Below, piece by piece: positions 13,341 to 48,424 of a stretch of 51,075 nt of DNA. Position numbers and translations under genes: made by a program. How positions within the stretch are numbered: the first letter of the stretch is position 1; each line of letters opens with the position of its first letter. Under the pieces are notes generated by a model. The model had not been told where the DNA came from, ran no database searches, and saw only the letters and a list, made by a program, of their open reading frames with translations. Location: positions 1-51,075 of the IMG/VR virus record IMGVR_UViG_3300010401_000013; one strand, 5' to 3'. Origin of the DNA: a virus. Lineage: Duplodnaviria; Caudoviricetes.

Positions 13341-13341
13341 A

Positions 13342-27492: not shown

Positions 27493-27537
27493 GCCCTTTC
27501 AACTGTCGCAATCACGTTGACAGTTGAACAATGCTTA

Positions 27538-28533: not shown

Positions 28534-28870
28534 TTATGCCATTTTATGGCCTTCTTCTTATTCTTTATCTTTTTTATATATTTTTTTATATTTTTTTTCT
28601 TTTTTAATAACTTTTTAGCAGGAAGTTCTTGGTGAGACTTGATTTGATAAAGTGGCATAAAGTGGCATAAAACGGTGTTAAATCGGCATAAAATGGCATA
28701 AACATAGATAGGGAAAAAGAAAGAAGTGATAAGGAGAGATAAAGACATAGGATGGAATGTGAAAAGGGGTTAGCAGGAATTTAGCAGTGTGGTAGTGGTG
28801 ATTTAGGAATGTCTTCTTTTTCCATAAGATCTATAGGCCAATTTATGCCCAATTATGCCAGTTTATGCCA
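28534..28870. repeat. Putative replication origin: GGCATAA iterons plus AT-rich tract
   Basis: Direct copies at 28654, 28664, 28685, 28695; inverted copies at 28534, 28843, 28853, 28863; T-rich run ~28552-28616. Confidence 0.65.
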
Positions 28871-28957
28871 CTTCCCGGGCGGGAATGGCTGAAAAGGTCG
28901 TGCTAAAAAGATATGAGAAAAGAAATGAATCATAAGGCGGAGATAAAGGATGCATAA

Positions 28958-28974
28958 GTGGCATGATAAGTGCT
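28958..28974 (+). promoter_or_regulatory. sigma54 promoter
   Basis: GTGGCATGATAAGTGCT, intergenic, upstream of the 29066 gene run. Confidence 0.75.
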
Positions 28975-29065
28975 AAATGCGAGGACAGTTAGTAGTTATC
29001 AGATCACCTATGAATAAGCATCAAAGGGAAATTAATAAGCTGTTCAGACAAAGAAGCGTGACAAT

Positions 29066-29338
29066 ATGAGAACAATCTACAAATATCCAATAGCTAGCAG
29101 GGACCAACAAACCATCCAGATGGGCCACAATGCAAAGCCAATTGCTGTGCAGTTTCAGCATGGAGTATTGTGTATTTGGGCAGAGGTGGAGAATCATCCA
29201 TTGTATGCAAAACTTCCAACAAAAGTGACGGTGTCCATCTACGGCACTGGACACCCACTACCAGACGAAAGCTTGGAAGAGCGGTATCTTGGAACGGTGC
29301 AACAGGATGGTCTAGTTTGGCATGTTTATACGTTATGA
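29066..29338 (+). CDS. Conserved phage hypothetical protein
   Basis: IYKYP...CIWAEV...YGTGH...YLGTVQ...VWHVY pattern recognised from phage proteins. Confidence 0.65.
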   Translation: MRTIYKYPIASRDQQTIQMGHNAKPIAVQFQHGVLCIWAEVENHPLYAKLPTKVTVSIYGTGHPLPDESLEERYLGTVQQDGLVWHVYTL

Positions 29339-29516
29339 ATGAAAATAATCTACCAGTGGTTGAATTCACAATGTGGAAATCAACAGGAGGCTACAACATC
29401 AAATGTGTTTGCCACTCACGAGGATACTTGAAGATATGGAACTACATTCCAGCCTTGAAGCTGGCATCAGCAATAATCGAGAAAGTCTATAAAGCTATTG
29501 AAAACTCCACAGATTT

Positions 29517-29795
29517 ATGAACCCACCAATTAACCTACCACTCACTATCCACGTCACGCAAGAGGACATAGACGAGGGAGTCCAAGAAGATTGCGAGAGA
29601 TGTCCAGTGGCAAGGGCAGTAGAACGAGCAACGGGCATTTCAACAGTTGTGCAATTTGAGAGAATCTCTGTTAACTGCCAAAACAAAGTAGTATTCGTAA
29701 CACCAACATACGTCAGAATATTCATCAAGGCATTTGACGAAACAAGACTCGTAACACCATTCAGCTTCACCCTAACCGAGAATGACCGCGTATGA
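29517..29795 (+). CDS. Hypothetical protein (paralogue of 33586..33864)
   Basis: VTQEDIDEG...CPVARAV. Confidence 0.6.
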   Translation: MNPPINLPLTIHVTQEDIDEGVQEDCERCPVARAVERATGISTVVQFERISVNCQNKVVFVTPTYVRIFIKAFDETRLVTPFSFTLTENDRV

Positions 29796-30046
29796 CAACC
29801 ACCACGTTAATCACCATTCTCAAGCAACTTCCCGAACAGGAAGTGACAACAGGATTGTTAGCGGCATATGGAGTGCTGAACAATCCACAGGAGGAGTTGG
29901 ATGCTGAGTTTAAAAAACTTGAAGGAATGCTCTCGGGTGACGACAGGCTAATGCCTGGTAGAGAATCAGACTTTGTAAAGTCTCTTTCGAAGGTTAAGCA
30001 TCTTCGGAAGTTCATTGAGAATATTAAATACAAAGCGACAACATGA
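29792..30046 (+). CDS. Hypothetical protein
   Basis: ATGA overlap with the upstream ORF. Confidence 0.55.
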   Translation: MTTTTLITILKQLPEQEVTTGLLAAYGVLNNPQEELDAEFKKLEGMLSGDDRLMPGRESDFVKSLSKVKHLRKFIENIKYKATT

Positions 30047-30254
30047 AAAACTGCCATATCCGAATCACGTTATCCAGCACCTACACAATCGCAACAATTC
30101 AATGGGTAGACTCAACCACAGGAAAAGTCAAAGGAACCTTTGGACGAGAAGAAATCTGTAAGTTAATCTACATCCTGGGAAGGAGACTAAGTGGACACAA
30201 AAGTAAGCCAACAATCTAAGGCATAACAACCAGATAAAGATTCTTAACAACCAA

Positions 30255-30271
30255 CTGGCATGCAACCTGCT
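30255..30271 (+). promoter_or_regulatory. sigma54 promoter
   Basis: CTGGCATGCAACCTGCT in the 30220-30294 intergenic gap. Confidence 0.8.
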
Positions 30272-30294
30272 GTTAGACGCATGTCCTCAATCTC

Positions 30295-30804
30295 ATGAAA
30301 GACAAACAAACTATAGACGCAACAGGTGTCAAGATGCACAAGGTGGAGTTGACAGATAGGGAAGTCACATTCTTAAAAGACGCAATACATATTGTGATGG
30401 AGACAGAAACAGGAACATTTCTGTGTGGTCTAGAGGAATGTGTGAACATCCTAAAGAAGCTTGAAGACAGTATCAAACAAAAATCTCCATCCAAACCTCT
30501 CCGTTGGTTTCTCTACAACCAAAATAATTCAGGTAGAGAATTCGTCAAAGACGATAAAGTCGATGAATATGTCTTCATTGAGGCACACGGCGCAACGGAG
30601 GCAAATGCTCTCGCAGAGAAGCTCGGAATCTATTTTGATGGCTGCCAGAAAAAAATAGACTGTTTTTGTTGTGGAGATAGGTGGACAGAATGTTGGGTAG
30701 ATGAACATGGAACAGAGACAGTGGAACTCTACGGCAAGCCACTAGACGCCAATAGAGCAGGACGCAGCAAAATCTGGAATTACGAGACGTTGAGGAAACT
30801 CTAA
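30295..30804 (+). CDS. Conserved phage hypothetical protein
   Basis: YNQNNSG...FIEA...GIYFDGC...DCFCCGDRW motif. Confidence 0.65.
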   Translation: MKDKQTIDATGVKMHKVELTDREVTFLKDAIHIVMETETGTFLCGLEECVNILKKLEDSIKQKSPSKPLRWFLYNQNNSGREFVKDDKVDEYVFIEAHGATEANALAEKLGIYFDGCQKKIDCFCCGDRWTECWVDEHGTETVELYGKPLDANRAGRSKIWNYETLRKL

Positions 30805-30810
30805 GACAAC

Positions 30811-31098
30811 ATGAAGACAGTTATCTTATCTGTCAAAGACGTTCAACGCCTACGAACACTTCTAGGAAAGAGTGAAAAGATTAAGAAATTCAACAGTCAT
30901 AAATGCTTCCCACTGTGCGAAAATTGTCTGCCAATAAACACACTATTGAGTAGCCTGTGGAATGCTTGGTATGACAACCGAGAAACAGGAAAGAAACCAA
31001 CAATAGAGCTATCAGATAGCATGTTAAAGATTTGTATCGCCGCACTTCCAGAGAAGTCGAAAGATCAGATAGTGAGGGCATTAAGGAAGAAACTCTAA
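30811..31098 (+). CDS. Hypothetical protein
   Basis: 95 aa; Cys cluster CFPLCENC. Confidence 0.5.
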   Translation: MKTVILSVKDVQRLRTLLGKSEKIKKFNSHKCFPLCENCLPINTLLSSLWNAWYDNRETGKKPTIELSDSMLKICIAALPEKSKDQIVRALRKKL

Positions 31099-31119
31099 TT
31101 TTAATCAACCAGCGCTCTA

Positions 31120-31136
31120 CTGGCGATTAATTAGCA
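31120..31136 (+). promoter_or_regulatory. Weaker sigma54-like promoter
   Basis: CTGGCGATTAATTAGCA (GG-N10-GC), intergenic, upstream of 31185. Confidence 0.45.
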
Positions 31137-31184
31137 ACGGCTAGAGCACAACAAGAACCAAACAAACAAGCAGAAAGAAACAAT

Positions 31185-31829
31185 ATGTCAGATGGAACTC
31201 CAGTTAGTGGAACACCCGTAGCGACCGCAGAGGGAGAAAAGACAGTCAAAGAAATCAAGCCCCTTTATGTCGAGGGCACAAACGAGGATATCCGCAAGGT
31301 AATCCCGATGCTTGATCCAGTCTCCCGTAATGGCGTATCCTGCGCCATCAACGCGGGACAAACGAAACACGGGCAAAAGCAAGGTCGGTATTACATGAAG
31401 CTCAAGGTTGAGGACTTGTCGTATCCTGACCTTTTGCAGTTTGTGGGTGAATCGGAAGTCAAGGGCATTCTGGTGAAGGAACTTGCCCTGCTCTGTCGTC
31501 AGTGGACCGATCAAGCATCGTCCATGAATGCTGAGGGTAAGGTTTCTCTCGAAGTCTGGAAGACCTGCGCTCAGAATCTCCTCGTTGTTCGTGTCAGCTT
31601 GGAGTCTCTCCAGGAGCAACTGGACACTGCATTCGAGGAGTTCACAGCGTTGTTTGGTCCAGATGGCGAATTGCTGCCTGACTCGCCTGACACCAAGCCC
31701 CAAGATACCAACAAGGCGAAGTTCATGCAGTATCTTGGACGCACTCGGGAGTTGCAGAAGCAGATCAGCAAAATTGAGGCAGACAGGGCGGCCAAGAAGC
31801 AGGGTGGCAGTGGTAATGGGTTGGATTGA
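31185..31829 (+). CDS. Hypothetical protein
   Basis: 214 aa; long A-rich leader; downstream hairpin 31840-31892. Confidence 0.7.
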   Translation: MSDGTPVSGTPVATAEGEKTVKEIKPLYVEGTNEDIRKVIPMLDPVSRNGVSCAINAGQTKHGQKQGRYYMKLKVEDLSYPDLLQFVGESEVKGILVKELALLCRQWTDQASSMNAEGKVSLEVWKTCAQNLLVVRVSLESLQEQLDTAFEEFTALFGPDGELLPDSPDTKPQDTNKAKFMQYLGRTRELQKQISKIEADRAAKKQGGSGNGLD

Positions 31830-31919
31830 GTAGTGTCTAGTTAACAGACAGGCATGGTCAAGAGTCACTAATGACCATGCAAGTCTGTCAACAGCAGAAC
31901 AGTCGGAATACTTCACAAT

Positions 31920-32192
31920 ATGAAACCTTCTGAATTACTTGACTCACCTGAGAAGTGGACAACTGGAGAATTAGCTAGGGACAAGGACGGAAATAAATGT
32001 GATCCACTAAGTCCAGAAGCAGTTTGTTGGTGTATTGAAGGCGCATACAGGAGGGTGTATGGTTACGATATGGAGGCGATAATTGGAGTGTTCTTGATAC
32101 GACAACTAGGACTAACGGAGACTGCATTCAGGTTCAACGACTCTCACACCTTCGAGGAAGTCCGGCAGGTTCTAATAAACGCTGACCTATAA
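31920..32192 (+). CDS. Conserved phage hypothetical protein (DUF6197-like)
   Basis: PEKWTTGELARD...VCWCIEGA...FND...FEEV. Confidence 0.55.
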   Translation: MKPSELLDSPEKWTTGELARDKDGNKCDPLSPEAVCWCIEGAYRRVYGYDMEAIIGVFLIRQLGLTETAFRFNDSHTFEEVRQVLINADL

Positions 32193-32279
32193 TTTCCCAA
32201 CCATAGGTAATGCTACGACACACCATGATCCAGCATGCATGTCCGGAATATGAGCATAACCGGCTATGGTTGGAGTTAG

Positions 32280-32375
32280 GCGCACATAGTTCAACGGCAG
32301 AACGTAGAAGTCCGAGACACGAAAGTGGAGTAGGCATCCAAATGCTGAATGTCGGTTCGATTCCGACTGTGCGCG
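32280..32375 (+). tRNA. tRNA-like RNA with aberrant anticodon region
   Basis: Acceptor GCGCACA/TGTGCGC, D-arm GTTC-AACGGCA-GAAC, T-arm GTCGG-TTCGATT-CCGAC; 46-nt middle lacks a canonical anticodon arm; no encoded CCA. Confidence 0.6.
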
Positions 32376-32464
32376 GTGATTTACCCAACATCAATGAAAC
32401 CAACAACCCACGTTGTGGACTTGCTGAGTGCAACTTGTTGGTGTTGGGTTCTTCTTAAAATATT

Positions 32465-32707
32465 ATGAAATATCTTGCAATAATCAACAGTGACTATCCG
32501 GGAGTAAAGATAGAAGATAGCAATGAGAACACTCATACGGCAGTGGTAGTAAACTCAGATGCTATTGACAGTGTCGGCATGTTTGAGGATGGAGAGGTTT
32601 ACATTCAAACAAATGAAGAAGTCTACTACTTCACAAGTAACGTCCCACAACAAACCCAGCAGGTATTTGCTTGGATACTCAAGCAACTAGGCGAAGCCAA
32701 GTATTAA
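32465..32707 (+). CDS. Hypothetical protein
   Basis: 80 aa ORF on the operon strand. Confidence 0.55.
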   Translation: MKYLAIINSDYPGVKIEDSNENTHTAVVVNSDAIDSVGMFEDGEVYIQTNEEVYYFTSNVPQQTQQVFAWILKQLGEAKY

Positions 32708-32708
32708 C

Positions 32709-32981
32709 ATGAGCATGAGCATGAGCATGAGCAACGATACACCTGAGGGCACACCTGAGGGCACAAACCACTGGCCAGGACTTGCAACCAAGCGTTGCGT
32801 GTGTGGATATCCAGCAGAGGTAGATTCCACACACGCAACGCAAGACAATGGGATGCGAGTAAAACTGTTCTACTTCAAATGCTGCCACTTTGAACACAAA
32901 GGTCCATTAGCATTCAGTGAACAGAAAGCAAGAGAATTGTGGAACCAGAAATACGCAAAAAATTCTAACTACAAAGACTAA
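32709..32981 (+). CDS. Small Zn-finger (Lar-like) protein with repeat-derived N-terminus
   Basis: CVCG...KCC...ARELWN; (CATGAG)4 and (ACACCTGAGGGC)2 at the 5' end. Confidence 0.55.
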   Translation: MSMSMSMSNDTPEGTPEGTNHWPGLATKRCVCGYPAEVDSTHATQDNGMRVKLFYFKCCHFEHKGPLAFSEQKARELWNQKYAKNSNYKD

Positions 32982-33307
32982 TGACCTCCCGACAGCTATC
33001 CATAGCCCTCGCCACAGGCTTCACCATTATCAACACTTCCCTTTGGCTAGACTATCGTGGAGTTGGGCAACGACTGCCGAAAACTTTACCAGGTGAGGCG
33101 TTGAAGACAAATTATTCTTTCAACATCAACATTGGTGAAGGAATGTCAAACACTGAGGAAGTCATCCTGCACGACGTGCCAACCTTGGATTTCGGTAGTG
33201 GCGTTCGCTTGCCACTGCTACCAACGTCCTCACAGCATGACCTGACAAACACTTTGAGGCAATTTACAACGCACGCAGATTTCAGATACATAAAGACGAA
33301 TCGTTAA
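32981..33307 (+). CDS. Hypothetical protein
   Basis: TAATG coupling with the upstream ORF. Confidence 0.5.
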   Translation: MTSRQLSIALATGFTIINTSLWLDYRGVGQRLPKTLPGEALKTNYSFNINIGEGMSNTEEVILHDVPTLDFGSGVRLPLLPTSSQHDLTNTLRQFTTHADFRYIKTNR

Positions 33308-33312
33308 CAACT

Positions 33313-33561
33313 ATGAAAACAGAACTAATCGCAGTTAAAGAGGTAGTGAGGAACCAAAAGAAGGAAGGTCTTTACGAGACAAGACAAGGAACGGCAGTGG
33401 TCCTGGTGGCAACGTCAGGACTGAAGGCTATGGTTGTCCATTATGGCTGTCATTACGAACTGGAAATGAACTGTGGAGATATGGTTTCAGCCGCAAGCAA
33501 CTTTGAACAATACTGGAAACGCCTACCAGCAGGAAGTCAAGTGCTGTTGACACAGGAATAA
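33313..33561 (+). CDS. Hypothetical protein
   Basis: 82 aa ORF in tiling. Confidence 0.55.
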   Translation: MKTELIAVKEVVRNQKKEGLYETRQGTAVVLVATSGLKAMVVHYGCHYELEMNCGDMVSAASNFEQYWKRLPAGSQVLLTQE

Positions 33562-33585
33562 CACAACTACCAATACCAAAACACT

Positions 33586-33864
33586 ATGAAACCAACTGGA
33601 ATAATCAAAACACGAGTCACCAAGAAGGATGTGGAGGAAGCTGAGAAGCATCGAGGAGAATCTTGCATTACACTTAGCTGTCCAATTGCAAGAAGTCTAC
33701 GAAAGAAATGGGACACAGTATCGGTTGGGTATAAATCAGCAAAGGTCAATGGCCACTCTTACTGGCTTGATAAACTGGGAGAAACCATCTCAAGCCAGTT
33801 CTCTTTTGAAAAGAAGACTTCTACTGGATGGGTAACACTAACACCATTCTCCACGAATGTCTAA
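33586..33864 (+). CDS. Hypothetical protein (paralogue of 29517..29795)
   Basis: VTKKDVEEA...CPIARSL. Confidence 0.6.
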   Translation: MKPTGIIKTRVTKKDVEEAEKHRGESCITLSCPIARSLRKKWDTVSVGYKSAKVNGHSYWLDKLGETISSQFSFEKKTSTGWVTLTPFSTNV

Positions 33865-34453
33865 CCAACCACCATCCAAGCCATACGAGGCATTTCCTGA
33901 GGACATTCCTGTCACCATAGAACGAGCAGGAATCGGAACGGCAACCGACATCAAGACACAAGGATTGCCTTTGTGTGTGGTTTTAAGGATGCTGATGAAC
34001 AAGTCGGGGCATTTCATTTGGTCAGCGGTCTATGATGCCCACGACTTTGTGAAGGTGGACGTGAAACTGGCGAAAGAATTGGAACGACTAGACCCAGATG
34101 AAACCTTGCTGCACGTCCAGTGGGAAGACTTTGAGGGGAAACCAATCCTGTTTCACGATAAGTGGAGTGACCGAGTGATCCCGAATGTTGCCTGCGTCTG
34201 GCACATTCATGCTTGGCGAACATCAGTTGCACGGTGGCTATGGCAACAACATGCGTCCGAAGCACAACGACAGGCAAGGTTTCAGGAAGTGGAGGCGTAT
34301 AATACGTTCGTATCGTTAATCGAGAAACAAGATGGGATTTCCACCAAACAAGCAGAGGAAATGGCAAGGTTCATCATCAAAGGAAAATACAAACCTATGG
34401 CACGAGTTTATGGTTGGGATTTAGAAGCGAGGAAGGAGATTGAGAGGGTATGA
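33857..34453 (+). CDS. Hypothetical protein
   Basis: 198 aa ORF in tiling. Confidence 0.65.
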   Translation: MSNQPPSKPYEAFPEDIPVTIERAGIGTATDIKTQGLPLCVVLRMLMNKSGHFIWSAVYDAHDFVKVDVKLAKELERLDPDETLLHVQWEDFEGKPILFHDKWSDRVIPNVACVWHIHAWRTSVARWLWQQHASEAQRQARFQEVEAYNTFVSLIEKQDGISTKQAEEMARFIIKGKYKPMARVYGWDLEARKEIERV

Positions 34454-34937
34454 ACAAAAGAAAATTGTGGTTAATAATTACCTGGTGGGTTCTGCTAGGA
34501 CTATTACATGTAGGATTGCTAGTCACATCCGGATTCTTTATTGTCAAGTTTCTACTACTGGCAATTAAGTTTATGGAAAAGTCAATCCAATGAACAACCT
34601 GCCGCCTGAAGGCATTCCGCCCAAATACGAAGAACAAGATAACCTTTGGTATATGGCGATTTGGTTGATTGCGTCAGTGGTTATCGCAAGCGTGTTGTTA
34701 GTTTTGTTTTTCTCGTTATGAAACGTATAGCAATCGACACATTCATACTATTCTGCTTGTCACTAGCAATGGCGTGTTTAATTATCTTTATACTCCACCT
34801 TGCTGGATGTCAATAGTATGAAAGAACTAGATTTTCTGCGTGCAATCCGAAGTGAACTGCAAGACATCAAGTTGCTGTTAATCATTATAGCTGGCTTTCA
34901 GTTCTTCACTGTAGTAGCAGTCCTCTTCTACAAATGA
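34450..34937 (+). CDS. Four coupled hydrophobic micropeptide ORFs (34450-34593, 34590-34721, 34718-34816, 34818-34937)
   Basis: Manual translation; ATGA overlaps; each has a long hydrophobic stretch. Confidence 0.6.
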
Positions 34938-35464
34938 AACTCTTCTTCTTGTCACTCAACCCACAACAAGCAGCGGAAATGCTGGACGACAGGAACCTGG
35001 AAACTTGTTGTGCGGAACAGTGGAAGTGGTTGCCGGATGTAGAACTGGAAGTTAACAGACCTAGAACCAAGTCTGAGGATTGGGTAAGGGTAACCTTAGA
35101 AAATCGTGTAACACTAGGCATCTTCTCCTCATATTGCCACCTAGAATTTAAATACCGCAACAACACGTGGCACCATCAAGAACCAAAATTTAACTGGTAT
35201 TTTAGCCTACTGTGTAAGAAAGCAGACCACGAGCATTTGCCTGTCGTTATGCGTGTAGTGGTTCCTCAAGTGGAACAAGATGTCAGGAAAGCCTTTCGAG
35301 GCCAAGACATCGCCAAAGCCTACCAGCAACATTATCTGCATTCGGCAGAGAGTTGGAATGCTGTGTGGACCAAGCGTGAGGTTCCAGAATTTTACAGACA
35401 GCATCTAGCCGAGACTCAAATGATAAGAATGAAGAATCAACGAATGACTTTCGCGATAAACTAA
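34934..35464 (+). CDS. Pyrimidine-dimer DNA glycosylase (DenV)-like protein, divergent
   Basis: N-terminus MKLFFLSLNPQQAAEMLDD and C-terminal AYQQHY...WTKREVPEF resemble the family; catalytic residues not confirmed. Confidence 0.5.
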   Translation: MKLFFLSLNPQQAAEMLDDRNLETCCAEQWKWLPDVELEVNRPRTKSEDWVRVTLENRVTLGIFSSYCHLEFKYRNNTWHHQEPKFNWYFSLLCKKADHEHLPVVMRVVVPQVEQDVRKAFRGQDIAKAYQQHYLHSAESWNAVWTKREVPEFYRQHLAETQMIRMKNQRMTFAIN

Positions 35465-35469
35465 TAAAT

Positions 35470-37362
35470 ATGGACCTCCCCAAAAACTTTGACTTGTCCT
35501 TGCTGCCACCTGAGAACCCTGCGTTGCAATCTAATCGCCTAGAACGATTTCAGTATAACGCATCAAACAAGCTTTGTTATGCCTTCCTCGTCGCCGGTAA
35601 GTCTGCCATCCAGCTAATTGGTGGAACCGGCGTAGGAAAAACATGGATAGGTGGCAACTTCCTGGCACGCCTGAAAGCAGCAGGCAAGGATCGTGCACCA
35701 CACAATACATTCACACCTTATCCTTTTTGGTGGATAACCACAGCAAACTGTGTGGAACCGGTTCGTAGGGAACTCACCCAAGGGTTTGGCTTACAAGAAT
35801 TCGATGACTTTTGGGTAACCAACTACGATCAACTCCGGTCAAAAGAAGGTGAGAAGTTCTTCAGCGAGAAGACCGTAGTGCGAGATGGCGTAGAGGTTCT
35901 TGAAGTGGTTGTGCAGCATCGTCTCCTTCCCCGTGTAATCATCATCGACGAATCCCAGAAAGTCAAGAATCCAAAAACCAAGCAGCATCGATACATTCAG
36001 GCGATAATCAAACTTCCCAGGGAGATTCGCCCATGGATCATCTTCATGTCGGCAACACCCTGGACACGGGTGATTGACGCTAAGTGTTTCGTGACAGCAT
36101 CGGAGATTCCATTGCTTGGCTTCCCCGTAGATGATAGCCATTGGGATGAAGTCTCCGCAAATATCTCAACCGACGGTGACCCAATGCTGCATTCGCCGAA
36201 GGCAATCGGGACACTAAGGGATTTGAGTGAGGATTGGATCATTGACATCCCAACCATTACCGGTAAGTATCGTGCCTACAACTCCTGTAAGTTGATTGAC
36301 TTTAAGAATGTGGAAAGCCGGGCAAGGTATCTTGCAGCTTGGGAGAGGTTCGAGCAGAAGTGTGCAAAAATGGGGAGAGATACACCTAACGGCCACTTCG
36401 AGGAACTTGTGGCTTTGGGGCAATTCAGGCAAGCAGCGGAATTGGAACGTGCAGAAATCTTTGCGGATGAAGCTGTTAGCAGGTTGGCCAAAGACAACAA
36501 GTCCATCATCATTGCCGCCGCTTTTCGCGGAACCATTGCACGCTGTGTCCGTTATATGATTAAGAAGCATGGCGTCAAGCGTGAGGATATATCTCTTATC
36601 TGGGGAGGCGACGATTCCTTTGAGCAATCTGGTCGGTTAACGCAGAAGGAGATCATGGACTACGGGTTTCGGATTGCTAAGGGTGAGAAACTCCCCGAAG
36701 CTATCTGGCGAAAGCTGAATAAGGAATTGGCCACAGCAGATGAGGATGTCCAAGAGATTAAGGAACTGGCGGGTGTAAAGTTAGACTTAGGCAGCCAATC
36801 CCGAGAACAACGACAACGGGAAATTGACAGGTTCCAAACCTCTCGCACGAGGATTTGCCTCTTCACCCAAGCATCTGGTGGAACTGGGGTTTCCCTACAT
36901 CACACCAATCAGTGGTTTGAGGTATTCTACAAGAAGCATTTCACTTGCTTAAATCCTACCGAAGCACCAGAGCATCGGGAATATCGATCGAACGCTACAG
37001 GCAAGGTCTTTCGCTCTTATCCCAGGTATGTGATGGTGACGCCCACATATTCCGGACAAGACTTTGTCCAGACACTTGGACGAGGGCATCGGTCAATGTT
37101 TAGTTTGTCAGACACGTATCAAGATGTTTGCTGGTTCCGTAATACAAAGGAAGAGGATGTCATGGATATTGTCCAGACAAAATTGCATTGCCTATCGAAA
37201 GCCATCAAGCAACGAGAAACGTGGCATGACGTTCTGCGTAAGCCCAAGAAGGAACGGATGGTTGATCCTGCGGAAGCTGCCTTGAAAGCTGTGAATGAAG
37301 AATACATTGCAGCAGATGGAGATGTTAACGAAGGAGAGAGTGAACAGGAGGAGAATGAATGA
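35470..37362 (+). CDS. Superfamily 2 helicase
   Basis: [37 protein letters not shown]. Confidence 0.88.
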
Positions 37363-38108
37363 ATGTAATTGACACCCCAATAGACCCACGAACCTATAAT
37401 CCCCAAGTCCACGAAGACTTTGCTCGTGGATACTTGAACAAATTAATTACCGCCGATCCTGAAATGCAGAAACAGAAACGGATTGCGGAGAAGCTGGCAG
37501 GCCTGTCCGATCCTGTCCTGATTCTTGGAGAGACAGGCACAGGAAAGGAACTCTTAGCGCGAGCAATGGGTGGAATCAGGCATCCATTTGTATCCGTGAA
37601 CTGTGCAGCAATCACCGAATCCTTGGCAGAGAGTGAACTCTTTGGACACAAGCGTGGATCGTTCACCGGGGCAATCGCGGATCATCAAGGGTATTTTGAA
37701 CAAGCAGCAGGAGGTTGCATATTCCTAGATGAAATCAATAGCTTGCCGTTGAACATGCAAGCGAAATTACTCCGTGTATTAGATGGTGGCGAATACCGTA
37801 AGGTGGGTGCTGAGAAGGTGGAGAAGATTAGTTGCCGAATAATTGCTGCCTCAAACTATGTTAGCCTAACTCATGCTGATTCTCAATTCAGAACTGATCT
37901 TTATTGGAGATTGGCCACATATTCAATCATAACGATTCCGCTATGGAGAAGGGAGCAGGATGCCGTTAACTATATGTCTTCACAAGGGATGTCTGGACTG
38001 GATTTGACAACAGCTTTAAGTGACACCAGAGTGTTTAAGTCAGGCAACTACCGTGAAATGTTCGCGTATGTGAAACGCTGGAAATTTGAAAGGAGTTTGA
38101 GTCTATGA
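37359..38108 (+). CDS. Stand-alone sigma54-dependent transcriptional activator (bEBP AAA+ domain)
   Basis: [68 protein letters not shown]; no receiver/sensor domain, no C-terminal HTH. Confidence 0.95.
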
Positions 38109-38458
38109 TCAGTCACCAGTTTGCAGAAGGGATAACCAAAAGTGGAAAATATCCAGAAACACAGGCATGGAAAATAGCAGAGGAATTGGACCTAATATTA
38201 GTCTGGAGTGAGTATCCTGGAGTTGTAAGATTCCATGGATTGGTAAATGACGACAAGCATTGTGTGGTTGGGGAAAGGATAATTAAATTCTACCTACCGG
38301 AAGCTGGGCAGACTTTAACCTATCTTCAAGAACGTAGAGTGGGTGGAACCTTTCTGACCGTTGCTGCCGACTGTTCTACAGGAAGATTCATAGTCGCTGA
38401 GTCTAAAGAATATCAGTCAATTGGAGTTGTTCTAAATAAAAGGAGTTTGAAGATATGA
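38105..38458 (+). CDS. Hypothetical protein
   Basis: ATGA-coupled to the activator gene. Confidence 0.55.
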
Positions 38459-38801
38459 CAGAAGAACAGTATCAGGAGATTTTGAAGTTGAGAGATGCGG
38501 CAATAGAAGAAGCTGACGACATGGATTATTTCACTGGCCGAGCAGACGCCATCGAATCTGTGATGATAATTCTCGATAAACCGCTACCACCACGACGCGA
38601 CTAAATTTAAATATGACAAAAGAAGAATATGATGCAGAATTTCTAAGGCTGACGTCAGCACCAATTACCCATCCATTTTGGGAAACGTGCAGAGCAGAAG
38701 TTAACGACCTTAGAGAGAAGATTGGATACTCTCCAGAACTTGCGAGGTTTGAATATTTAGCCAAAGCAATTGGATACAGACTCGGATACGAAACCTAACC
38801 T

Positions 38802-39377
38802 ATGCCCCACTCCTACAAAAATCGACGAGCAGCAATGGAAGTCCAAGAATGGGTGGACATGGTTCTCGCCGAACCTGGTGCAGAATTCGAGATCAACCCA
38901 CTCGAAAAGAATATGAACTTGGTGTCTCTCCAAACTTATATTTCCGGTGGCTTCTCCTACATGCGAGAACAAGCTAAGTCACCCAAAGAGCGTGCAGAAA
39001 TTGACAACATGCGACGACGTATTGTCATCAAAAGGGATAAGGATAAGTTGATACTCACCGCAAAACCAGATGGATTCAATCGTTCATTGTTGAAACGCCG
39101 TGGAAGCGGCGCTCATATGGTGATAGATGGGCATGCGAAGTCGCATAAAGTGGAGCAACCAGAACCAATTGCTGGAACTGTATTTGACATCATGGAGTTT
39201 GCAACCAAGTTTCAGACATTTTACGAATCCGCGAAGGAGAACGAGGAGATGGTAGTCGTATACGATAACTACCTAACCGGAGCAGACAAGCAGGCGATTC
39301 ATGATTTTCTTGAGTCGTCAGAGAGTTTCAAGTGCGTGGTGGATAGAAACAAAATAACCGTGAGGAGGGTAGCCTAA
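38802..39377 (+). CDS. Hypothetical protein
   Basis: 191 aa ORF. Confidence 0.65.
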   Translation: MPHSYKNRRAAMEVQEWVDMVLAEPGAEFEINPLEKNMNLVSLQTYISGGFSYMREQAKSPKERAEIDNMRRRIVIKRDKDKLILTAKPDGFNRSLLKRRGSGAHMVIDGHAKSHKVEQPEPIAGTVFDIMEFATKFQTFYESAKENEEMVVVYDNYLTGADKQAIHDFLESSESFKCVVDRNKITVRRVA

Positions 39378-39515
39378 TATGAAAGTCAAAGAACTAATTG
39401 AGGAGTTGCAGGCGTTGGAGAAACCGGAGGCTAAAGTAATTTTCTATGGATATGACTTCCAATATGCGATTGACTATGTAGCTTATGATCCAAAAGAGAA
39501 CACAGTTGATCTTCA

Positions 39516-39740
39516 ATGACCATCGAAGAATTCCTTGGACTTTCCGCAGACGACTTCGCACGAATGTCCGACGAAGAAATCATGACACACTTGCAACCAT
39601 ATCTTGCTGCAAGCAGGCCAGCAGAAGGAAAGAAATTCGCCAGCAAGGATCAAATCGTGACCACCCAACGAACGAACAAACGAAAGAATATGATGAGTAT
39701 GATTGAAGGATATTTAAAAAAGCATGGAGAGCCGCTATGA
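39516..39740 (+). CDS. Hypothetical protein
   Basis: 74 aa; coupled to the next ORF. Confidence 0.55.
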   Translation: MTIEEFLGLSADDFARMSDEEIMTHLQPYLAASRPAEGKKFASKDQIVTTQRTNKRKNMMSMIEGYLKKHGEPL

Positions 39741-39931
39741 CATCAATAACCTGCGACGAGTGCGGAAAAGTTATCGAAGGTTTATCTGGAATTCCAACAC
39801 AAGAAAGGTCAGTGAGGCTAAAGCTTAGAGGCGAGGTAACTTTTGAACTAAAGGTCAAGAAAGAGAATGCTGACATCTGTTGGCCTTGTGCTAAGATGTT
39901 ATTGGTGAAAGTTTTTTCATCTATACAATGA
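39737..39931 (+). CDS. Small Zn-ribbon protein
   Basis: CDECG...ICWPC. Confidence 0.55.
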   Translation: MTSITCDECGKVIEGLSGIPTQERSVRLKLRGEVTFELKVKKENADICWPCAKMLLVKVFSSIQ

Positions 39932-40857
39932 AACCCACCATCCGCATAGACGCCTCATCCTTAGTTTATTCAGCGTGCATTCGACGCTTCTACTGGACAG
40001 TCGTCGACGGCTATCGAGAAGACGACCACGGATTTGAGAACACTGCGATGCATTTGGGATCAGCCTACCACATATTCGCAGAACACTTCTATAAGGACCG
40101 CTCCGAAGAACTTGCGATGCTTGCTGGTCGAAAGTATTTTCTGTCGAAGCGCTTCAAACCCGGACCCAAGCAGCAGTTTATCGACTTGCCGTATTTTATG
40201 TCGATGTGTGCGCAGGGTGCTTTGTATCTGTCGAACTCTCCATTTCAACCAGTAACGGTGGGTGACCAACCACTAGTAGAAATCAAGTTCGAGATTCCTG
40301 TGCATGAAGATGACCATTGTAGAATCTGCCTTTGTGGCACCATCGATAAGGTAGGGAAGTTCAAGAACGGACCTTACGCAATCGGCGATTACAAAGTTTC
40401 CAACGCAAGCGATCCGCAGAAGTATTTCGAGCAACATAAACTCTCGACTCAATTGCTCACTTACCTTTGGGCCTTACGATGGTTTTCTCGCGAGAAAGAA
40501 GCTATCGCAGAAATCTGGAATGGTGGGCAGGTAGGAATATTCATTGATGGAGTATTCCACCACGGCAAAATTGGGATGGTAGATTTTTTACGCAGTGACG
40601 TTATCTATGTGCCAGAGAAACTGATTGACGCTTATGAGTGCCAACTGCACACAGTAGCAAGAGGACTTGCATTTGCGATGAAGCACAGAGATAAAGTAGA
40701 GCCTCCACCTGAAGGCATTATTAATGGCTCCTGTTCCTCGTATTCTTCACAATGCAAATTCGTTGGTGTCTGTGGTGCAACTGAACCTGAGATTGGAAAA
40801 CTATGCCTAGAACAAAACTTCGTGAAAAAAGAATACAACCCGTTGGAGTTTCGCTAA
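39928..40857 (+). CDS. PD-(D/E)XK (Cas4/AddB-like) exonuclease
   Basis: CIRRFYW, GSAYH, VEIKF, GTID, GDYK, C-terminal Cys cluster. Confidence 0.85.
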   Translation: MKPTIRIDASSLVYSACIRRFYWTVVDGYREDDHGFENTAMHLGSAYHIFAEHFYKDRSEELAMLAGRKYFLSKRFKPGPKQQFIDLPYFMSMCAQGALYLSNSPFQPVTVGDQPLVEIKFEIPVHEDDHCRICLCGTIDKVGKFKNGPYAIGDYKVSNASDPQKYFEQHKLSTQLLTYLWALRWFSREKEAIAEIWNGGQVGIFIDGVFHHGKIGMVDFLRSDVIYVPEKLIDAYECQLHTVARGLAFAMKHRDKVEPPPEGIINGSCSSYSSQCKFVGVCGATEPEIGKLCLEQNFVKKEYNPLEFR

Positions 40858-40864
40858 ACAACTT

Positions 40865-41134
40865 ATGAGCACTCAACTAATGGGACTTCGACGTGATGTT
40901 GCTGAATGCCTTGAGAAATTCTCACGAGCAGCGGCAATGGAATACATGCAGAAGATTCGAGATGAACAACCAACCTATAGCGAGGAGAAAGTTAAGCAGG
41001 TCTTTGACGAATACATGCAACCGTCTGCGGCGGTTCATGCTTTGGCGTTGTTCATTCAAGGATTGATTGATACTAACGGAAAACACATACAACTACCGAG
41101 CAAAGAGTATATCGCTAGAAAGTTTAAGATATGA
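40865..41134 (+). CDS. Hypothetical protein
   Basis: 89 aa ORF in tiling. Confidence 0.55.
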   Translation: MSTQLMGLRRDVAECLEKFSRAAAMEYMQKIRDEQPTYSEEKVKQVFDEYMQPSAAVHALALFIQGLIDTNGKHIQLPSKEYIARKFKI

Positions 41135-41727
41135 ACCTCATAGCATTCACAGGACACTCTGGAGTTGGGAAGGATACGGTGGCCTCAATACTTGAAGAAC
41201 TCATTTCGATACCTGACTTCTGTCCGGTGGTTATTCACGTTAAAACCTCTGACTATATAGCCCTGCAACTGGCTAGGGTAATTAAAGCTGACCAGTTCCA
41301 TATGTTGGAAGCAAGAAGCACGGAGCCTAAATTGATCAGAGAAATCCTCAAGGCTGCTGGAAATTGGGTCAGGGAAATGGAGTTAGAGTATCTTGACAAC
41401 CTAGTCCACTCGACTCTTGAAGACTACCCACTAGGTACAGACGACTACTTCTTGCTCACAGGCATCAGGTTCCCAGACGAGATTACCACCATAATCAACA
41501 ACTACAACGCAACCATCATCCGCATCACCAATCCACGTATCCCAATCCATGATCCATCTCACGATACTGTTAGGCATATCAATGACCTCCCCTACCATTA
41601 TGTCATCCCAAACACTGGCACCATTGACGACCTTCGAGCAACGGTCACCAAGCTCTGGAACGAGACTAGATTCTCGTCAGTTGGACGCCCTCTTATCTGC
41701 CCTGGCACTTGTGGAGACGGGGAATAA
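41131..41727 (+). CDS. Deoxynucleoside monophosphate kinase
   Basis: IAFTGHSGVGKDT, GIRFPDE, IIRI, IPNTGTIDDL. Confidence 0.8.
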   Translation: MNLIAFTGHSGVGKDTVASILEELISIPDFCPVVIHVKTSDYIALQLARVIKADQFHMLEARSTEPKLIREILKAAGNWVREMELEYLDNLVHSTLEDYPLGTDDYFLLTGIRFPDEITTIINNYNATIIRITNPRIPIHDPSHDTVRHINDLPYHYVIPNTGTIDDLRATVTKLWNETRFSSVGRPLICPGTCGDGE

Positions 41728-42043
41728 TCCCCATGCTATTGGTGCTCGTGGTGAGATTAGCGAGTATCAAATAATGCCAGCTTTATGGAGGATTTATTCC
41801 CAAAGACTTGGCACTAAAAATGCTCGGAGTATAGCATCCTCAATTCTCCACGATAACTATGCATGGTATGTTCGTCTATATTCTAGACCACCGTTTCCAG
41901 AAGAACAATACTGTATATGGAATCTGGGAAAAACTAAGTTCAGATGCACAACTAAATCAGGCAAGTTCCTACCTATCAGAATAAAAGTAGTTCAGAATTT
42001 TGCAAATACCTACCATGAGCAACTTAAACGACTTGGCAAATAA
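41549..42043 (+). CDS. SLT-type lytic transglycosylase-like protein (start uncertain)
   Basis: ALALVETGNNPHAIGARGEISEYQIMP...WNLG. Confidence 0.65.
   Translation: MIHLTILLGISMTSPTIMSSQTLAPLTTFEQRSPSSGTRLDSRQLDALLSALALVETGNNPHAIGARGEISEYQIMPALWRIYSQRLGTKNARSIASSILHDNYAWYVRLYSRPPFPEEQYCIWNLGKTKFRCTTKSGKFLPIRIKVVQNFANTYHEQLKRLGK
41808..41824 (+). promoter_or_regulatory. Intragenic sigma54-like promoter upstream of the recombination/replication genes
   Basis: TTGGCACTAAAAATGCT, ~190 nt before ATG 42015. Confidence 0.45.
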
Positions 42044-42869
42044 GGTGGCACCACTAGTAGCTACATCAGGTTTTGCGCAACAAGTCTCAGTCGCTGATCC
42101 GCTAGCGTTTCTCTCGTCGATTGTTGAATATTCAGACAATCCAAAATCCTCACAGATACGCTTGTTGATTATCTCCAAGAACGGACTTGGTAAAACTTGG
42201 TCGGCGTTAACAGCACCTAACCCGATTGTCTGTGACTTCGACCGCGGGATGCTTGCACACCAAGACCGGAAGATTCCAACATTGAACTTCTATGACGTAG
42301 ATTTCTGCAAGAAGATAAATCCACAGAAACCCAATGCCCGTGACGCCTTTGAACAATGGCTCTGTTTTCCGGGGACTAAGACCGGAGCAGAACACATTCC
42401 AGCAGGACACACTTTAATCATCGACTCTTGGACAGGGTTGCAAGACTTTGAGGGACAGCAGACAGACATTGCACCTAAAGTCACAGCAAAGGGGAAGGAA
42501 GATGGTTACGCCAAATGGGCAACCAAGTTAGAGTATGCAACCAAGATTTGCTTGCGGTTGCAGACTCTTGCCTGTCATGTGATTGTCACCGCCCATGAAG
42601 ATGAAATGAAGGACGAGAATGGTGCATTGATGAATCGTGTGATGCCACTCATGCAAGGCAAGTTCCAACAGAAGATGGGGAATTACTTCACGCATATCGT
42701 CAGGATGCTCGTAACCTCGAAAAATACGCTCAACTCTACAGGCAAGATCGAATCTGTCCAAAGTGAATGGTGGTGGCAGTGTCAGACCGACGACAATTTC
42801 GCGGCAAAGTGCCGTGGACGTAACGACAAATACAAAGTTCCCGCAAGATGGGAATGCCTTCCGCAGTGA
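42015..42869 (+). CDS. AAA_24 / Sak4-like ATPase
   Basis: NGLGKT, CDFDRG, LIIDSWT, VIVTAHE; near the exonuclease and SSB genes. Confidence 0.8.
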   Translation: MSNLNDLANKVAPLVATSGFAQQVSVADPLAFLSSIVEYSDNPKSSQIRLLIISKNGLGKTWSALTAPNPIVCDFDRGMLAHQDRKIPTLNFYDVDFCKKINPQKPNARDAFEQWLCFPGTKTGAEHIPAGHTLIIDSWTGLQDFEGQQTDIAPKVTAKGKEDGYAKWATKLEYATKICLRLQTLACHVIVTAHEDEMKDENGALMNRVMPLMQGKFQQKMGNYFTHIVRMLVTSKNTLNSTGKIESVQSEWWWQCQTDDNFAAKCRGRNDKYKVPARWECLPQ

Positions 42870-42887
42870 ACCTAATAAAAAACTAAT

Positions 42888-43166
42888 ATGGATATAAATA
42901 CTAAAACACCACAGCCACTTGAAACTGGCGGGATTGGACAACCAAAATTCACGCCGACTGAACAAGAACAGATTGAAAGGACATTCACTTATCATGCACC
43001 AAAGGGTGACCAGCAAACTCGATATGTGCAATTGCGAGAGAAAGCGAAAGAGCTTGCTTATCTGATTGCAAGTAATTGTCCAGCAAGTCGCGAAAAGTCA
43101 CTAGCCATGACAAGCTTGCAACAAGTAACTATGTGGGCCAACGCCTCAATTGCAATTAACGAATAA
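42888..43166 (+). CDS. Acb2/Tad1-like cyclic-nucleotide sponge (anti-defence) candidate
   Basis: FTYHAP...RYVQLREKAK...CPASREKSLAMTSLQQVTMWANASIA helical hairpin pattern. Confidence 0.65.
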   Translation: MDINTKTPQPLETGGIGQPKFTPTEQEQIERTFTYHAPKGDQQTRYVQLREKAKELAYLIASNCPASREKSLAMTSLQQVTMWANASIAINE

Positions 43167-43170
43167 CATT

Positions 43171-43476
43171 ATGCCCGACGAAACCTTTACAAACGCAGAC
43201 GGCCAGACAATCGACGAGCGCAAAGCTCAGATCGCACAACAGCAACAGGATCAAGACAATGCCCGACTCTCTGATCTAATCGCCAGCAACTACAAACGCA
43301 TGTTTGCCCATCCAGTTGCCGGACCTCTTGCCGCCCAGCTGAATGCCTTGCGTGGCCAGTATCTATCAATGGGCGGTGACATCCAAGAGACTGCCAGCAA
43401 TCGTGCTGTAGCGGCAGGACTTGCAAACTTGATCTTACCTTTCATTGATTCCGTGTCTCAGCTTCCAGGAATCTAA
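43171..43476 (+). CDS. Hypothetical protein
   Basis: 101 aa from ATG 43171. Confidence 0.55.
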   Translation: MPDETFTNADGQTIDERKAQIAQQQQDQDNARLSDLIASNYKRMFAHPVAGPLAAQLNALRGQYLSMGGDIQETASNRAVAAGLANLILPFIDSVSQLPGI

Positions 43477-43538
43477 CAATTTCTCCCTAAAGAGAAACAC
43501 GAAACAAACAACAAACAAAAACATAACAAACTAAATAT

Positions 43539-44039
43539 ATGGCAGTATTCAACAAGTCCGATCTCGTGGCCGCTGGTGCAATCAAGCTCCCTACCGGCTG
43601 CTATCATTATCGTTGCATCTCCTCCAAGATTGCAATCTCACGGAAGTCTGGCGCGAAGATGTTCGTCAATCAATGGGAACTCTATTCCCCGGAGAAGGTG
43701 GAAGTTGGCGGCGTGGTCGCAATCATCGCTGGCCAGAAGTTCACTGATCGTGTGGTGATTTCTCCGAAGGCAATCCCCTTTGCCTTCCAGAACTTCTTCA
43801 ACATCTTGCTCCCTGATCTTGACACGATCAACGACGAGGATGATGCACAGTTGGACGCAATCTGCAAACGGATTGACAGTCTTGCGGTGCGTGGAGTCCT
43901 TTCTTGGGAAGAGTCGTTCGTGATGGACGGGGAAGATAAAGTGCTTGATAGTGACACCAACCAGCCAATCTCGAATGGCTGGCAGGTGAATGTCAGGAAG
44001 CACCTCGGGTTCTCAACCATCCAACCTCCGGCGTTCTGA
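43539..44039 (+). CDS. Single-stranded DNA-binding protein (DUF669-like)
   Basis: LPTGCY...SRKSGAKM, C-terminal aromatic residue (PPAF); synteny with the AAA recombinase. Confidence 0.6.
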   Translation: MAVFNKSDLVAAGAIKLPTGCYHYRCISSKIAISRKSGAKMFVNQWELYSPEKVEVGGVVAIIAGQKFTDRVVISPKAIPFAFQNFFNILLPDLDTINDEDDAQLDAICKRIDSLAVRGVLSWEESFVMDGEDKVLDSDTNQPISNGWQVNVRKHLGFSTIQPPAF

Positions 44040-44285
44040 TATGATACGAGAAGTGAAAATAGTTCAAGAGGAGGATGTGTCTATGGCAGAACACTATACT
44101 AATGAACATCTTCGTAAAGGATGGACATTGGTATCAGGACTAACTTGCGAGCATGGAGTGTGGAGAGCAGTTCTACATGACATGAAAGAGGACGTTCCAC
44201 CAGCACCGGAAACGGAAAACTTCTAGTCCCATCAACACTTGCCCATCTAGTGTGAGGGTGGGCAAGATTGAGGAGATTAAATAAT

Positions 44286-44423
44286 ATGATTATATTTATT
44301 CCACCATCTTCAGATGAAGAATGCGATCCGGTCTTTGTAATGATAGTAATAATATTAAGCTGCATAGTAGGACTATGTGTAGTAGTCACTGCGGCATGGA
44401 TAGCATTAAGCGGAACTTGGTAA
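44286..44423 (+). CDS. 45-aa single-TM protein (not in ORF track)
   Basis: MIIFIPPSSDEECDPVFVMIVIILSCIVGLCVVVTAAWIALSGTW; TAATG-coupled to the polymerase N-part. Confidence 0.5.
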   Translation: MIIFIPPSSDEECDPVFVMIVIILSCIVGLCVVVTAAWIALSGTW

Positions 44424-46311: not shown

Positions 46312-46614
46312 ATGTTGTGACAAAGGCAAAGACGCAACACAAGTAATGTCTATTGTTCGAAACGGCGTGACAGAATATTCACGATACTGCGAATACTGCA
46401 AGAAACAGACAGCATTCTACAAAACCTTAGACCCAATCGTTAAAGAATGGAAAGAGTTATGCCAACAAACCAAATGAACAAAAACACCGAATACCTGAAA
46501 TGCGAGAAATGCAAGATCATGTTTAAGATTGATCCATACAACGTAGAAGAATGCAAACGCAAACATTGTTTTATGTGTAGTCCAGAGATTAAGGATGAAG
46601 ATTAAGGATTTGAT

Positions 46615-46845: not shown

Positions 46846-46847
46846 TT

Positions 46848-48418: not shown

Positions 48419-48424
48419 GCGACT

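Follow-up and report, generated by a model that had tools for sequence, protein, structure and literature searches.

A phage-encoded AAA+ core with the marks of a sigma-54 activator, and candidate sigma-54-type promoters across its lineage

Introduction

What could an activator of sigma-54 RNA polymerase do if it consisted of its AAA+ core and nothing else, and which promoters would it serve? The question is raised by the virus record IMGVR_UViG_3300010401_000013 (Caudoviricetes), the whole of which, a complete record of 51,075 bp with direct terminal repeats (DTR), is called the window here. Its genes are arranged in two divergent blocks, one on the minus strand (99..~26250) and one on the plus strand (~27500..51075), the latter carrying the replication genes: a split DNA polymerase, a ligase, a primase, a Sak4-like protein, a dNMP kinase, a PD-(D/E)XK nuclease and a helicase. 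The gene in question lies in this plus-strand block:

37359..38108, plus strand: activator gene, AAA+ core only, 249 aa (Pfam, motifs, AlphaFold2 (AF2) and Foldseek)

Phages redirect host RNA polymerase by sigma factors, appropriators, anti-sigmas or polymerases of their own. Here, we consider it probable that the 249-aa protein is an enhancer-independent activator that drives the middle and late sigma-54 promoters of the phage through the host's RNA polymerase holoenzyme with sigma-54 (E-sigma54).

Results

Domain content and fold of the activator

The activator cannot extend further at its N-terminus, because an in-frame TGA (37356-37358) abuts its ATG. PF00158 (Sigma54_activat) was matched at residues 29-190 with an E-value of 6.6e-54 and was the sole Pfam match; in the 249-aa protein, Pfam detected neither a Fis-type helix-turn-helix (HTH; HTH_8, PF02954), nor a receiver, GAF or PAS domain, nor AAA_lid_14 (PF25601). 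About 28 residues and one helix precede the AAA+ core, and 16 residues follow the GNYRE motif. The NCBIfam models of NorR, RtcR, NifA, NtrC and PspF were matched through their central domains only, far under the full-length cut-offs, and phrog_7998, a PHROGs family without assigned function, was matched with an E-value of 4.7e-39.

The catalytic motifs, which the original prediction from the letters alone had declared intact, were all located; their functional names are those that we take to apply from PspF and NtrC1. Walker A (GETGTGKE) is found at residues 57-64 and Walker B (FLDE) at 122-125, together with VNC at 80-82 (asparagine 81), ESELFGH at 91-97, the L1 loop GSFTGA at 100-105, AASN at 163-166, FRTDLYWRL at 177-185 and the sensor II motif GNYRE at 229-233. 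The protein departs slightly from the canonical form in three features: it has GSFTGA in place of GAFTGA and AASN in place of the AATN of most relatives, and its lid has about 11 residues fewer than that of the nearest homologues from cells.

For comparison, relatives were collected from IMG/VR with an alignment as the query, as a single-protein query of the viral contigs found none. The scan gave relatives on 252 viral contigs, 80 of which were kept and are the loci counted below; 66 distinct sequences were scanned for domains. GSFTGA is the L1 variant in 46 of the 80 viral relatives and GAFTGA in 23, and a loop of the form G-x-[FY]-T-G-A is kept in the window protein and in 77 of the 80. Thirteen residues (G57, G60, G62, K63, N81, T103, G104, D124, E125, R178, D180, R184 and R232) are invariant in 66 sequences, and the arginine fingers R178 and R184 and the sensor II arginine R232 are among them.

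An AF2 model built on the 66-sequence alignment reached a pLDDT of 88.3 and a pTM of 0.85. From the N-terminus, it shows a disordered tip (1-11), one additional helix (15-26), the alpha/beta subdomain and a helical lid that is compact and ends at residue 244. Foldseek aligned 228-240 columns of the 249 residues with the isolated AAA+ domains of FleQ, NtrC4, LuxO, FlrC, NtrC1 and PspF(1-275), with E-values down to 8.6e-22 for those of FleQ, NtrC4 and PspF, and the model is wholly explained by an AAA+ domain. No hidden HTH or sensory domain was found by Pfam, NCBIfam or PHROGs, nor by AF2 with Foldseek. The protein thus has the Walker motifs, L1 loop, arginine fingers, sensor II and lidded fold of a sigma-54 activator (PF00158, AAA+ clade 6), and it lacks the C-terminal HTH that marks an enhancer-binding protein in the strict sense. 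The regulatory and the DNA-binding domain are both absent, as in FleT, and no match to Response_reg, the receiver domain that group 5 activators (FlgR and CtcC) carry, was obtained in the 249 residues. Pfam, AF2 and Foldseek agree with the earlier proposal of a protein with neither of these domains, and from its sequence and its modelled fold the product is predicted to be an AAA+ sigma-54-activating core and nothing more.

A core gene of an uncultured phage lineage

Short forms prevail among the relatives: 75 of the 80 viral homologues have 340 aa or fewer, most of them with an extra N-terminal stretch of 40-100 aa. PF00158 was found in all 66 distinct sequences, HTH_8 in three, and HTH_28 and Response_reg in one each. 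A search of 1.84 billion cluster representatives (50% identity) returned 129,073 activator relatives at E ≤ 0.001; among the matches listed, identity was at most about 55% over the matched stretches, and 38-46% where most of the protein was matched. The closest database proteins have 266-320 aa, are encoded on 34-54-kb contigs and all end 12-15 residues past sensor II, and the nearest named cellular proteins are Planctomycetes activators of about 350 aa with HTH_8.

In a FastTree of 183 AAA+ cores, whose root position is not fixed, a branch with an SH-like support of 98 split 77 rows from 106. The side of 77 consists wholly of short forms, three of them 235-aa rows: 56 rows from viral contigs, including every short viral row, and 21 short metagenome proteins, the window's included. 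The side of 106 holds mainly long cellular proteins. The branch of the window protein is long (1.21).

A clade of 22 cellular-looking proteins of about 300 aa (P0009, P0012, P0013, P0016, P0039, P0079, P0101 and others) has AAA+ and lid with no HTH, and some of its members come from contigs between 90 kb and 6.5 Mb long and carry the label Planctomycetes. Because of this clade, cellular activators without sensory and DNA-binding domains seem to exist beyond FleT.

The gene is embedded in a conserved array, in which homologues of the upstream helicase were found in 44 of the 80 loci, of a 74-aa protein in 43 and of the nuclease in 69, next to the activator in all 80; the two parts of the polymerase have homologues in 47 and 40. 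When loci were selected by the polymerase instead, the activator was present in all 40 whose upstream DNA extended to 7 kb or more, and the 32 polymerase-selected loci without it all had too little upstream sequence. In this large lineage of uncultured phages, the activator is a core gene. Relatives among cultured phages were sought with tblastn in 50,697 phage records: every match of the activator was below 60% identity, and most of the matches fell in records that are bacterial or lack annotation. A polymerase search gave two distant matches.

Sigma-54-type sites in the window

The pattern set a priori, TGGCAC-N5-TTGCA with up to two mismatches, was found 31 times in the window against 18.84 expected, a count reached by 2 of 100 shuffles; the site at 26254-26269 is among these matches. 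The sharper pattern TGGCA-N7-TGCT occurred seven times against 0.61 expected; none of 100 shuffles reached seven, and all seven matches are on the coding strand of their region:

26254..26269, minus strand: sigma-54-type site TGGCAGGGATATTGCT, intergenic, in the gap that separates the divergent blocks, heading the minus-strand (structural) block
19504..19519, minus strand: sigma-54-type site TGGCATACTTGATGCT, intergenic; the probable major capsid gene lies 149 nt downstream
13071..13086, minus strand: sigma-54-type site TGGCATAATAGCTGCT, within the final 70 nt of a 107-aa open reading frame (ORF), 71 nt upstream of 12587..13000
28959..28974, plus strand: sigma-54-type site TGGCATGATAAGTGCT, intergenic, in the plus block, upstream of the activator gene
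30256..30271, plus strand: sigma-54-type site TGGCATGCAACCTGCT, intergenic, 24 nt upstream of ORF 30295..30804
8180..8195, minus strand: sigma-54-type match within ORF 7907..9571, which may be due to chance
41809..41824, plus strand: uncertain sigma-54-type match, probably in ORF 41549..42043; the Sak4-like gene lies 176 nt downstream

Four of these (26254, 19504, 28959 and 30256) are clearly intergenic. The original prediction had spoken of late activation from the activator's domain content, and these sites and their counterparts in the relatives supply it with concrete candidate targets. No phage-encoded sigma-54 was detected in the window by PF04552 or PF04963. Among the runs listed, no RNA run contained window positions 12000-21999; the two DNA runs listed are from soil metagenomes, and one of them may be the source of the record.

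A GTGGCATAAA-like repeat array occupies positions 28534-28875. It includes four to five direct copies at 28645-28702. A T-rich stretch (28572-28613) is flanked by inverted TTTATGCC(A) copies at 28534-28548 and 28839-28875, and the 28959 site is 85-420 nt downstream of the array. The repeats contain a TGGCAT half-site, but the distance GG..GC from one copy to the next is smaller by one base than in a sigma-54 promoter. The array could be a replication origin or a protein-binding array.

Enrichment, spacing and orientation in the relatives

With the slightly relaxed pattern TGGCA-N7-TGCW, the window has 7 matches against 1.3 expected, and six genomes together have 54 against 9.09, the maximum in dinucleotide-preserving shuffles being 19. 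The five near-complete relatives contributed 10, 8, 11, 10 and 8 matches (47 in all), and the backwards pattern gave 1. In the 80 activator-selected loci, which amount to 1.03 Mb with near-duplicates included, 133 matches were counted at a spacer of 7 and 19 for the backwards pattern; spacers of 3-6 gave 13, 32, 16 and 15 matches, and spacers of 8-11 gave 16, 19, 23 and 27.

Out of 140 sites, 120 point in the same direction as the downstream ORFs and 17 in the opposite one, and 123 lie outside any ORF of at least 150 aa. The positions left free by the pattern are biased as well: in 112 distinct sites, T precedes TGG in 70, C or T follows TGGCA in 97, G comes next in 69 and the final W is T in 103, which we take to follow the sigma-54 consensus. 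Judged by these features, putative -24/-12 promoters cognate to such an activator are present in the phage genomes.

No 8-mer was present in more than two of the seven regions upstream of the window sites; therefore, no common enhancer is visible. Solution activation is the simplest model because the phage has no sigma-54 of its own, the activator has no DNA-binding domain and the sites share no upstream motif.

The site upstream of the probable capsid gene

At one gene of the structural block, the position of the upstream site is conserved:

17949..19355, minus strand: probable major capsid protein, 468 aa (Atlas leads only: SU10_MCP and N4-gp56/Phage_capsid_4 clusters, TM 0.57)

The 468-aa protein had no match in Pfam or PHROGs nor in a profile search of solved structures, and its AF2 model, from a 6-sequence alignment, was unusable (pLDDT 33); going by the Atlas leads, it is probably the major capsid protein. 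A site is present 130-149 nt upstream of its orthologue in six of six genomes, although the orthologous proteins are only about 30-36% identical, and TTGGCA...TGCT is the sole invariant block in the alignment of the upstream regions. In a seventh relative, a 49.9-kb contig of a 'Deltaproteobacteria' metagenome-assembled genome (MAG), TTGGCATGGTTCTTGCT lies 121 nt upstream of the orthologue, which brings the total to seven of seven.

Two further features of these leaders were noted. In the window, a 9-bp inverted repeat, AAAGCTACC ... GGTAGCTTT (19495-19535, minus strand), brackets the 19504 site just after the stop of the upstream gene. Two copies of a motif containing AAGGGCAT (GCGAAGGGCAT ... 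CAAAGGGCATTG) are found in four of the six leaders (L160 at ~11900-12000, L169, L171 and L164) and are absent from that of the window.

Elsewhere, a site precedes the first gene of the structural block in five of six genomes by our reading of the table of sites. In addition, 53 of 62 distinct relatives have a same-strand site no more than 200 nt past the activator stop, for the most part at a distance of 2-62 nt. This arrangement suggests a sigma-54-independent unit that ends with the activator and is followed by the first dependent genes. The window departs from it, and its activator is translationally coupled to the ORF that follows.

The sites bear on a different use of the protein, as a host-takeover factor that switches on or exhausts the sigma-54 regulon of the host, the phage sites being incidental or secondary. 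Without a DNA-binding domain, phage and host promoters would be indistinguishable to it, and in Salmonella the AAA+ domain of DctD (DctD250) raised 16 of 20 predicted sigma-54 operons, as reported in the available part of that study (PMC3844500). However, the phage sites are about six-fold enriched, spacing-specific, intergenic and co-oriented, and the pre-capsid site holds its position across proteins that are about 30% identical. Functionless phage sites are hard to reconcile with this enrichment, spacing, orientation and conserved position at the capsid gene, and we regard host takeover as the main function as improbable.

Gene neighbours and possible partners

Three ORFs adjoin or closely follow the activator gene on the same strand:

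35470..37362, plus strand: helicase, 630 aa (phrog_62, DNA helicase, E 1.3e-14)
38105..38458, plus strand: 117-aa ORF, ATGA-coupled downstream of the activator, without a family; matched in 0 of the 80 related loci
38802..39377, plus strand: 191-aa ORF, in the position of a conserved protein of about 200 aa found between activator and nuclease in five relatives

The helicase is presumably SNF2/SF2-like, judging by a DESQKVKN motif that we recognise as such. Its stop (37360-37362) overlaps the activator start (37359-37361), and the activator stop (38106-38108) overlaps the start of the 117-aa ORF (38105-38107), both as ATGA, so the translational coupling that had been proposed on both sides is present in the sequence. 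The wider suggestion that this coupling ties late activation to replication fared less evenly: the gene does stand in the replication module, which is the only basis of that link, with a helicase homologue upstream in 44 of the 80 loci, whereas for the 117-aa ORF, which has no detectable homologue in those loci, a functional link is not supported.

Two proteins are conserved between activator and nuclease, one of 72-81 aa (39516..39740 in the window) and one of about 200 aa, both without assigned function. The latter family had no Pfam match, and hhalign gave the 191-aa ORF a probability of just 6% as its homologue.

This location is what could be said for an AAA+ remodeller outside sigma-54 activation, acting in replication, recombination or some other contact with RNA polymerase, or for a dominant-negative poison of host activators. 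The gene sits in the replication module, coupled to the helicase, and the accessible text of a 2026 preprint describes a phage AAA+ protein, Htm, that is structurally like sigma-54 activators and for which other roles are proposed. Htm, however, is described there as lacking the GAFTGA loop, while the G-x-[FY]-T-G-A form is kept in the window protein and nearly all its viral relatives, as are the arginine fingers and sensor II, and the gene co-occurs with -24/-12 sites. A role of this kind is very improbable.

The neighbours matter more for a second alternative, a targeted co-activator that would need a DNA-binding partner to join it in mixed rings or complexes and to direct it to particular promoters; the partner could be an activator of the host or a phage protein not recognised as such, for instance the ~200-aa or the 74-aa neighbour. 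This is the main rival because FleT, which lacks both domains, works with FleQ. The conservation of the ~200-aa and 72-81-aa proteins in five relatives and of a 74-aa homologue in 43 of the 80 loci would suit it, and so would the N-terminal stretch of most relatives, which has no assigned role, and the GTGGCATAAA array upstream of the 28959 site. Yet the window genome has a single PF00158 gene, the seven upstream regions share no motif, the 117-aa neighbour is not conserved, and constructs consisting of the AAA+ domain alone work by themselves from solution. We hold the partner model to be unlikely, and an activator acting on its own is preferred below.

The same motif in unrelated viral fragments

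In a reverse scan, the perfect promoter pattern was searched for first and activator genes were then sought in the loci found. The activator was present in 3 of 79 new loci and any marker of the lineage in 5 of 79. Ten motif-dense records gave no PF00158 match, and these records are 7-48% complete. The reverse scan is uninformative on the linkage between motif and activator.

Dense arrays of near-perfect -24/-12 sites were seen in several unrelated fragments (L239, 6519-10998; L175, 6630-10356; L188, 8232-11835; and, further, L197, 8236-8432, and L241, 346-508). Their densities are 24 sites in 13.9 kb, 17 in 11 kb and 14 in 12.6 kb, and the sites often switch strand every ~20-25 nt or make divergent pairs. 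Such arrays may be bidirectional promoter clusters or E-sigma54 sponges.

Other features of the genome

The minus-strand block consists mostly of large unrecognisable proteins, with a PHROGs match for one of the 12 that were scanned and a weak match to an SU10 portal. One protein of this block (13423..16884, minus strand, 1153 aa) has lipase-like and polysaccharide-deacetylase-like PHROG matches and may be a tail or depolymerase protein.

The polymerase is divided between two ORFs (44321..45955 and 48693..49730), separated by about 2.7 kb in which exonuclease- and ligase-like genes lie; in other relatives it is undivided, as one ORF of ~790-836 aa. The gap between the divergent blocks (26280-27500, ~1.2 kb) contains small ORFs only and several palindromes, and two of these ORFs have an 18-nt repeat, AGCATGACTCTATGA.GC, at their starts (27084 and 27305). 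A tRNA was called by Rfam at 32280-32375 on the plus strand (44.2 bits, 96 nt); it overlaps ORF 32210..32458 and was not called by ARAGORN.

Discussion

A model of activation from solution

Taken together, the protein and its candidate promoters suggest that a large part of the gene programme in this phage group is run by the host's sigma-54 RNA polymerase. The activator would be made from the plus-strand replication block and, once concentrated enough, would assemble into an AAA+ ring, whose GSFTGA loop would contact sigma-54. The use of ATP would then open closed complexes of host E-sigma54 on the phage -24/-12 promoters, the presumed targets being the ones that precede plus-strand genes, the one that heads the structural block and the one ~140 nt ahead of the probable capsid gene. 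Having no DNA-binding domain, the activator must, if active, act from solution.

Timing could come from concentration-dependent assembly, as we infer. In the available text on DctD250, this AAA+ domain was about ten-fold weaker than enhancer-bound NtrC at glnK (PMC3844500), a weakness that fits a switch needing accumulation of the protein. As the activator gene has the 28959 and 30256 sites upstream of it on its own strand, an early promoter would be needed to start the circuit, and positive feedback through these two sites is possible.

Because it would act from solution, the activator should also fire occupied host sigma-54 promoters. The original prediction had gone as far as any occupied sigma-54 promoter; the principle has a direct experimental precedent in the AAA+-only DctD250, at least in the text available (PMC3844500), and the activity of the phage protein, its constitutive behaviour and its effect on host promoters stay conjectural.

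Several points weigh against this model. The whole case is computational. A host sigma-54 is presumed, the sole hint being that the related 49.9-kb contig lies in a 'Deltaproteobacteria' MAG that encodes rpoN, and the binning of phage contigs into MAGs is unreliable. The early promoter required upstream of the activator could not be picked out among sigma-70-like matches, of which positions 25900-31000 held 5 against 9.0 expected. Activity of the window protein is not guaranteed, because of its long branch, GSFTGA, AASN, short lid and lack of AAA_lid_14. The only characterised natural activator without both domains, FleT, hetero-oligomerises with the DNA-binding FleQ, according to the portions available of two papers (PMC7175178, PMC7277832).

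The sites themselves add to this list. The window is without the post-activator site of 53 of the 62 relatives, its next plus-strand match being at 41809, and two of its seven sites are intragenic, with about 1.3 expected by chance. Enrichment of the a-priori pattern in the window was modest and suggestive only. The sharper pattern was chosen after the candidates had been viewed; therefore, the decisive controls are those on other genomes. Finally, the motif is not exclusive to the lineage, because dense arrays occur in unrelated fragments in which no activator was found, at 7-48% completeness.

We would put forward a broader proposal more tentatively, as possible and somewhat short of probable. 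A lineage of ~50-kb phages from soil, marine and other metagenomes may hand its middle and late transcription to the host sigma-54 holoenzyme by means of a self-encoded master switch, an enhancer-less and sensor-less AAA+ protein whose ring assembly would serve as a developmental timer and which would unavoidably turn on the whole sigma-54 regulon of the host. The dense arrays in larger viral fragments would then hint at a wider use or titration of E-sigma54 by phages.

The novelty would lie in the system, a minimal activator as a core gene together with conserved sigma-54-type promoters that are so far putative, across a phage lineage. If the model is true, such phages should depend on host rpoN for infection and remodel the sigma-54 regulon of the host during it, and enhancer-independent activation is widespread in nature, no mere curiosity of Chlamydia, Helicobacter or FleT. 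Also, a natural sigma-54 activator, minimal and constitutive, would be at hand together with compact promoters that match it, a useful pair for an orthogonal expression switch.

Comparison with known systems

In the open-access literature, no account was found of phage sigma-54 promoters driven by a phage-made activator. The nearest items were the GAFTGA-less Htm and a one-line mention in the available text of Comeau et al. (2012, PMC3391216), which names a co-opted cellular gene of Bdellovibrio phage phi1422 as a 'sigma-54-type regulator' and gives no architecture, promoters or role for it. Phage phi1422 is a cultured phage with such a gene, likened to ours by that description and not by sequence. 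One Pectobacterium phage paper proposes a distant sigma-54-like protein.

Late transcription in T4 (gp55/gp33/gp45), where phage-made factors re-aim host RNA polymerase at late promoters, is a functional analogy only, in that the T4 activator, too, is not a classical DNA-binding protein, as set out in the text available (PMC2988020). The proteins and promoters are unrelated, and T4 replaces sigma, whereas here the alternative sigma of the host is proposed to be used unchanged.

Among bacterial activators, FlgR of Helicobacter and Campylobacter and CtcC of Chlamydia (group 5) had been offered as comparators in the original prediction. They share with the phage protein the lack of a DNA-binding domain and, in the available sections of a 2020 review (PMC7175178), are enhancer-free; this much of the comparison stands. 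They keep a phosphorylated receiver domain, however, where the phage protein has about 28 residues and one helix, so FleT is the closer known case. PspF (group 4) is without an N-terminal sensory domain, as is the phage protein, in which control, if any, would be exerted in trans; PspF has a C-terminal HTH, according to the same sections (PMC7175178), and the phage protein has none.

FleT of Rhodobacter (Cereibacter) sphaeroides has the same AAA+-only make-up and is named in that review, in the part available, as the only known activator without both regulatory and DNA-binding domains. It is reported, again in the available text, to act as a hetero-oligomer with FleQ on flagellar promoters (PMC7277832). 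Unlike cellular FleT, the phage protein has no second activator gene beside it in the genome and belongs to a separate, largely viral clade.

In domain content and size, the phage protein equals DctD250 (Samuels et al.; residues 141-390 of DctD) and PspF(1-275), the latter being also among the best fold matches. DctD250, constitutive and promiscuous, raised glnK 150-fold and rtcB 16-fold in an enhancer-free manner, as given in the available text (PMC3844500). These two are laboratory truncations, whereas the phage protein is the natural product of a conserved gene.

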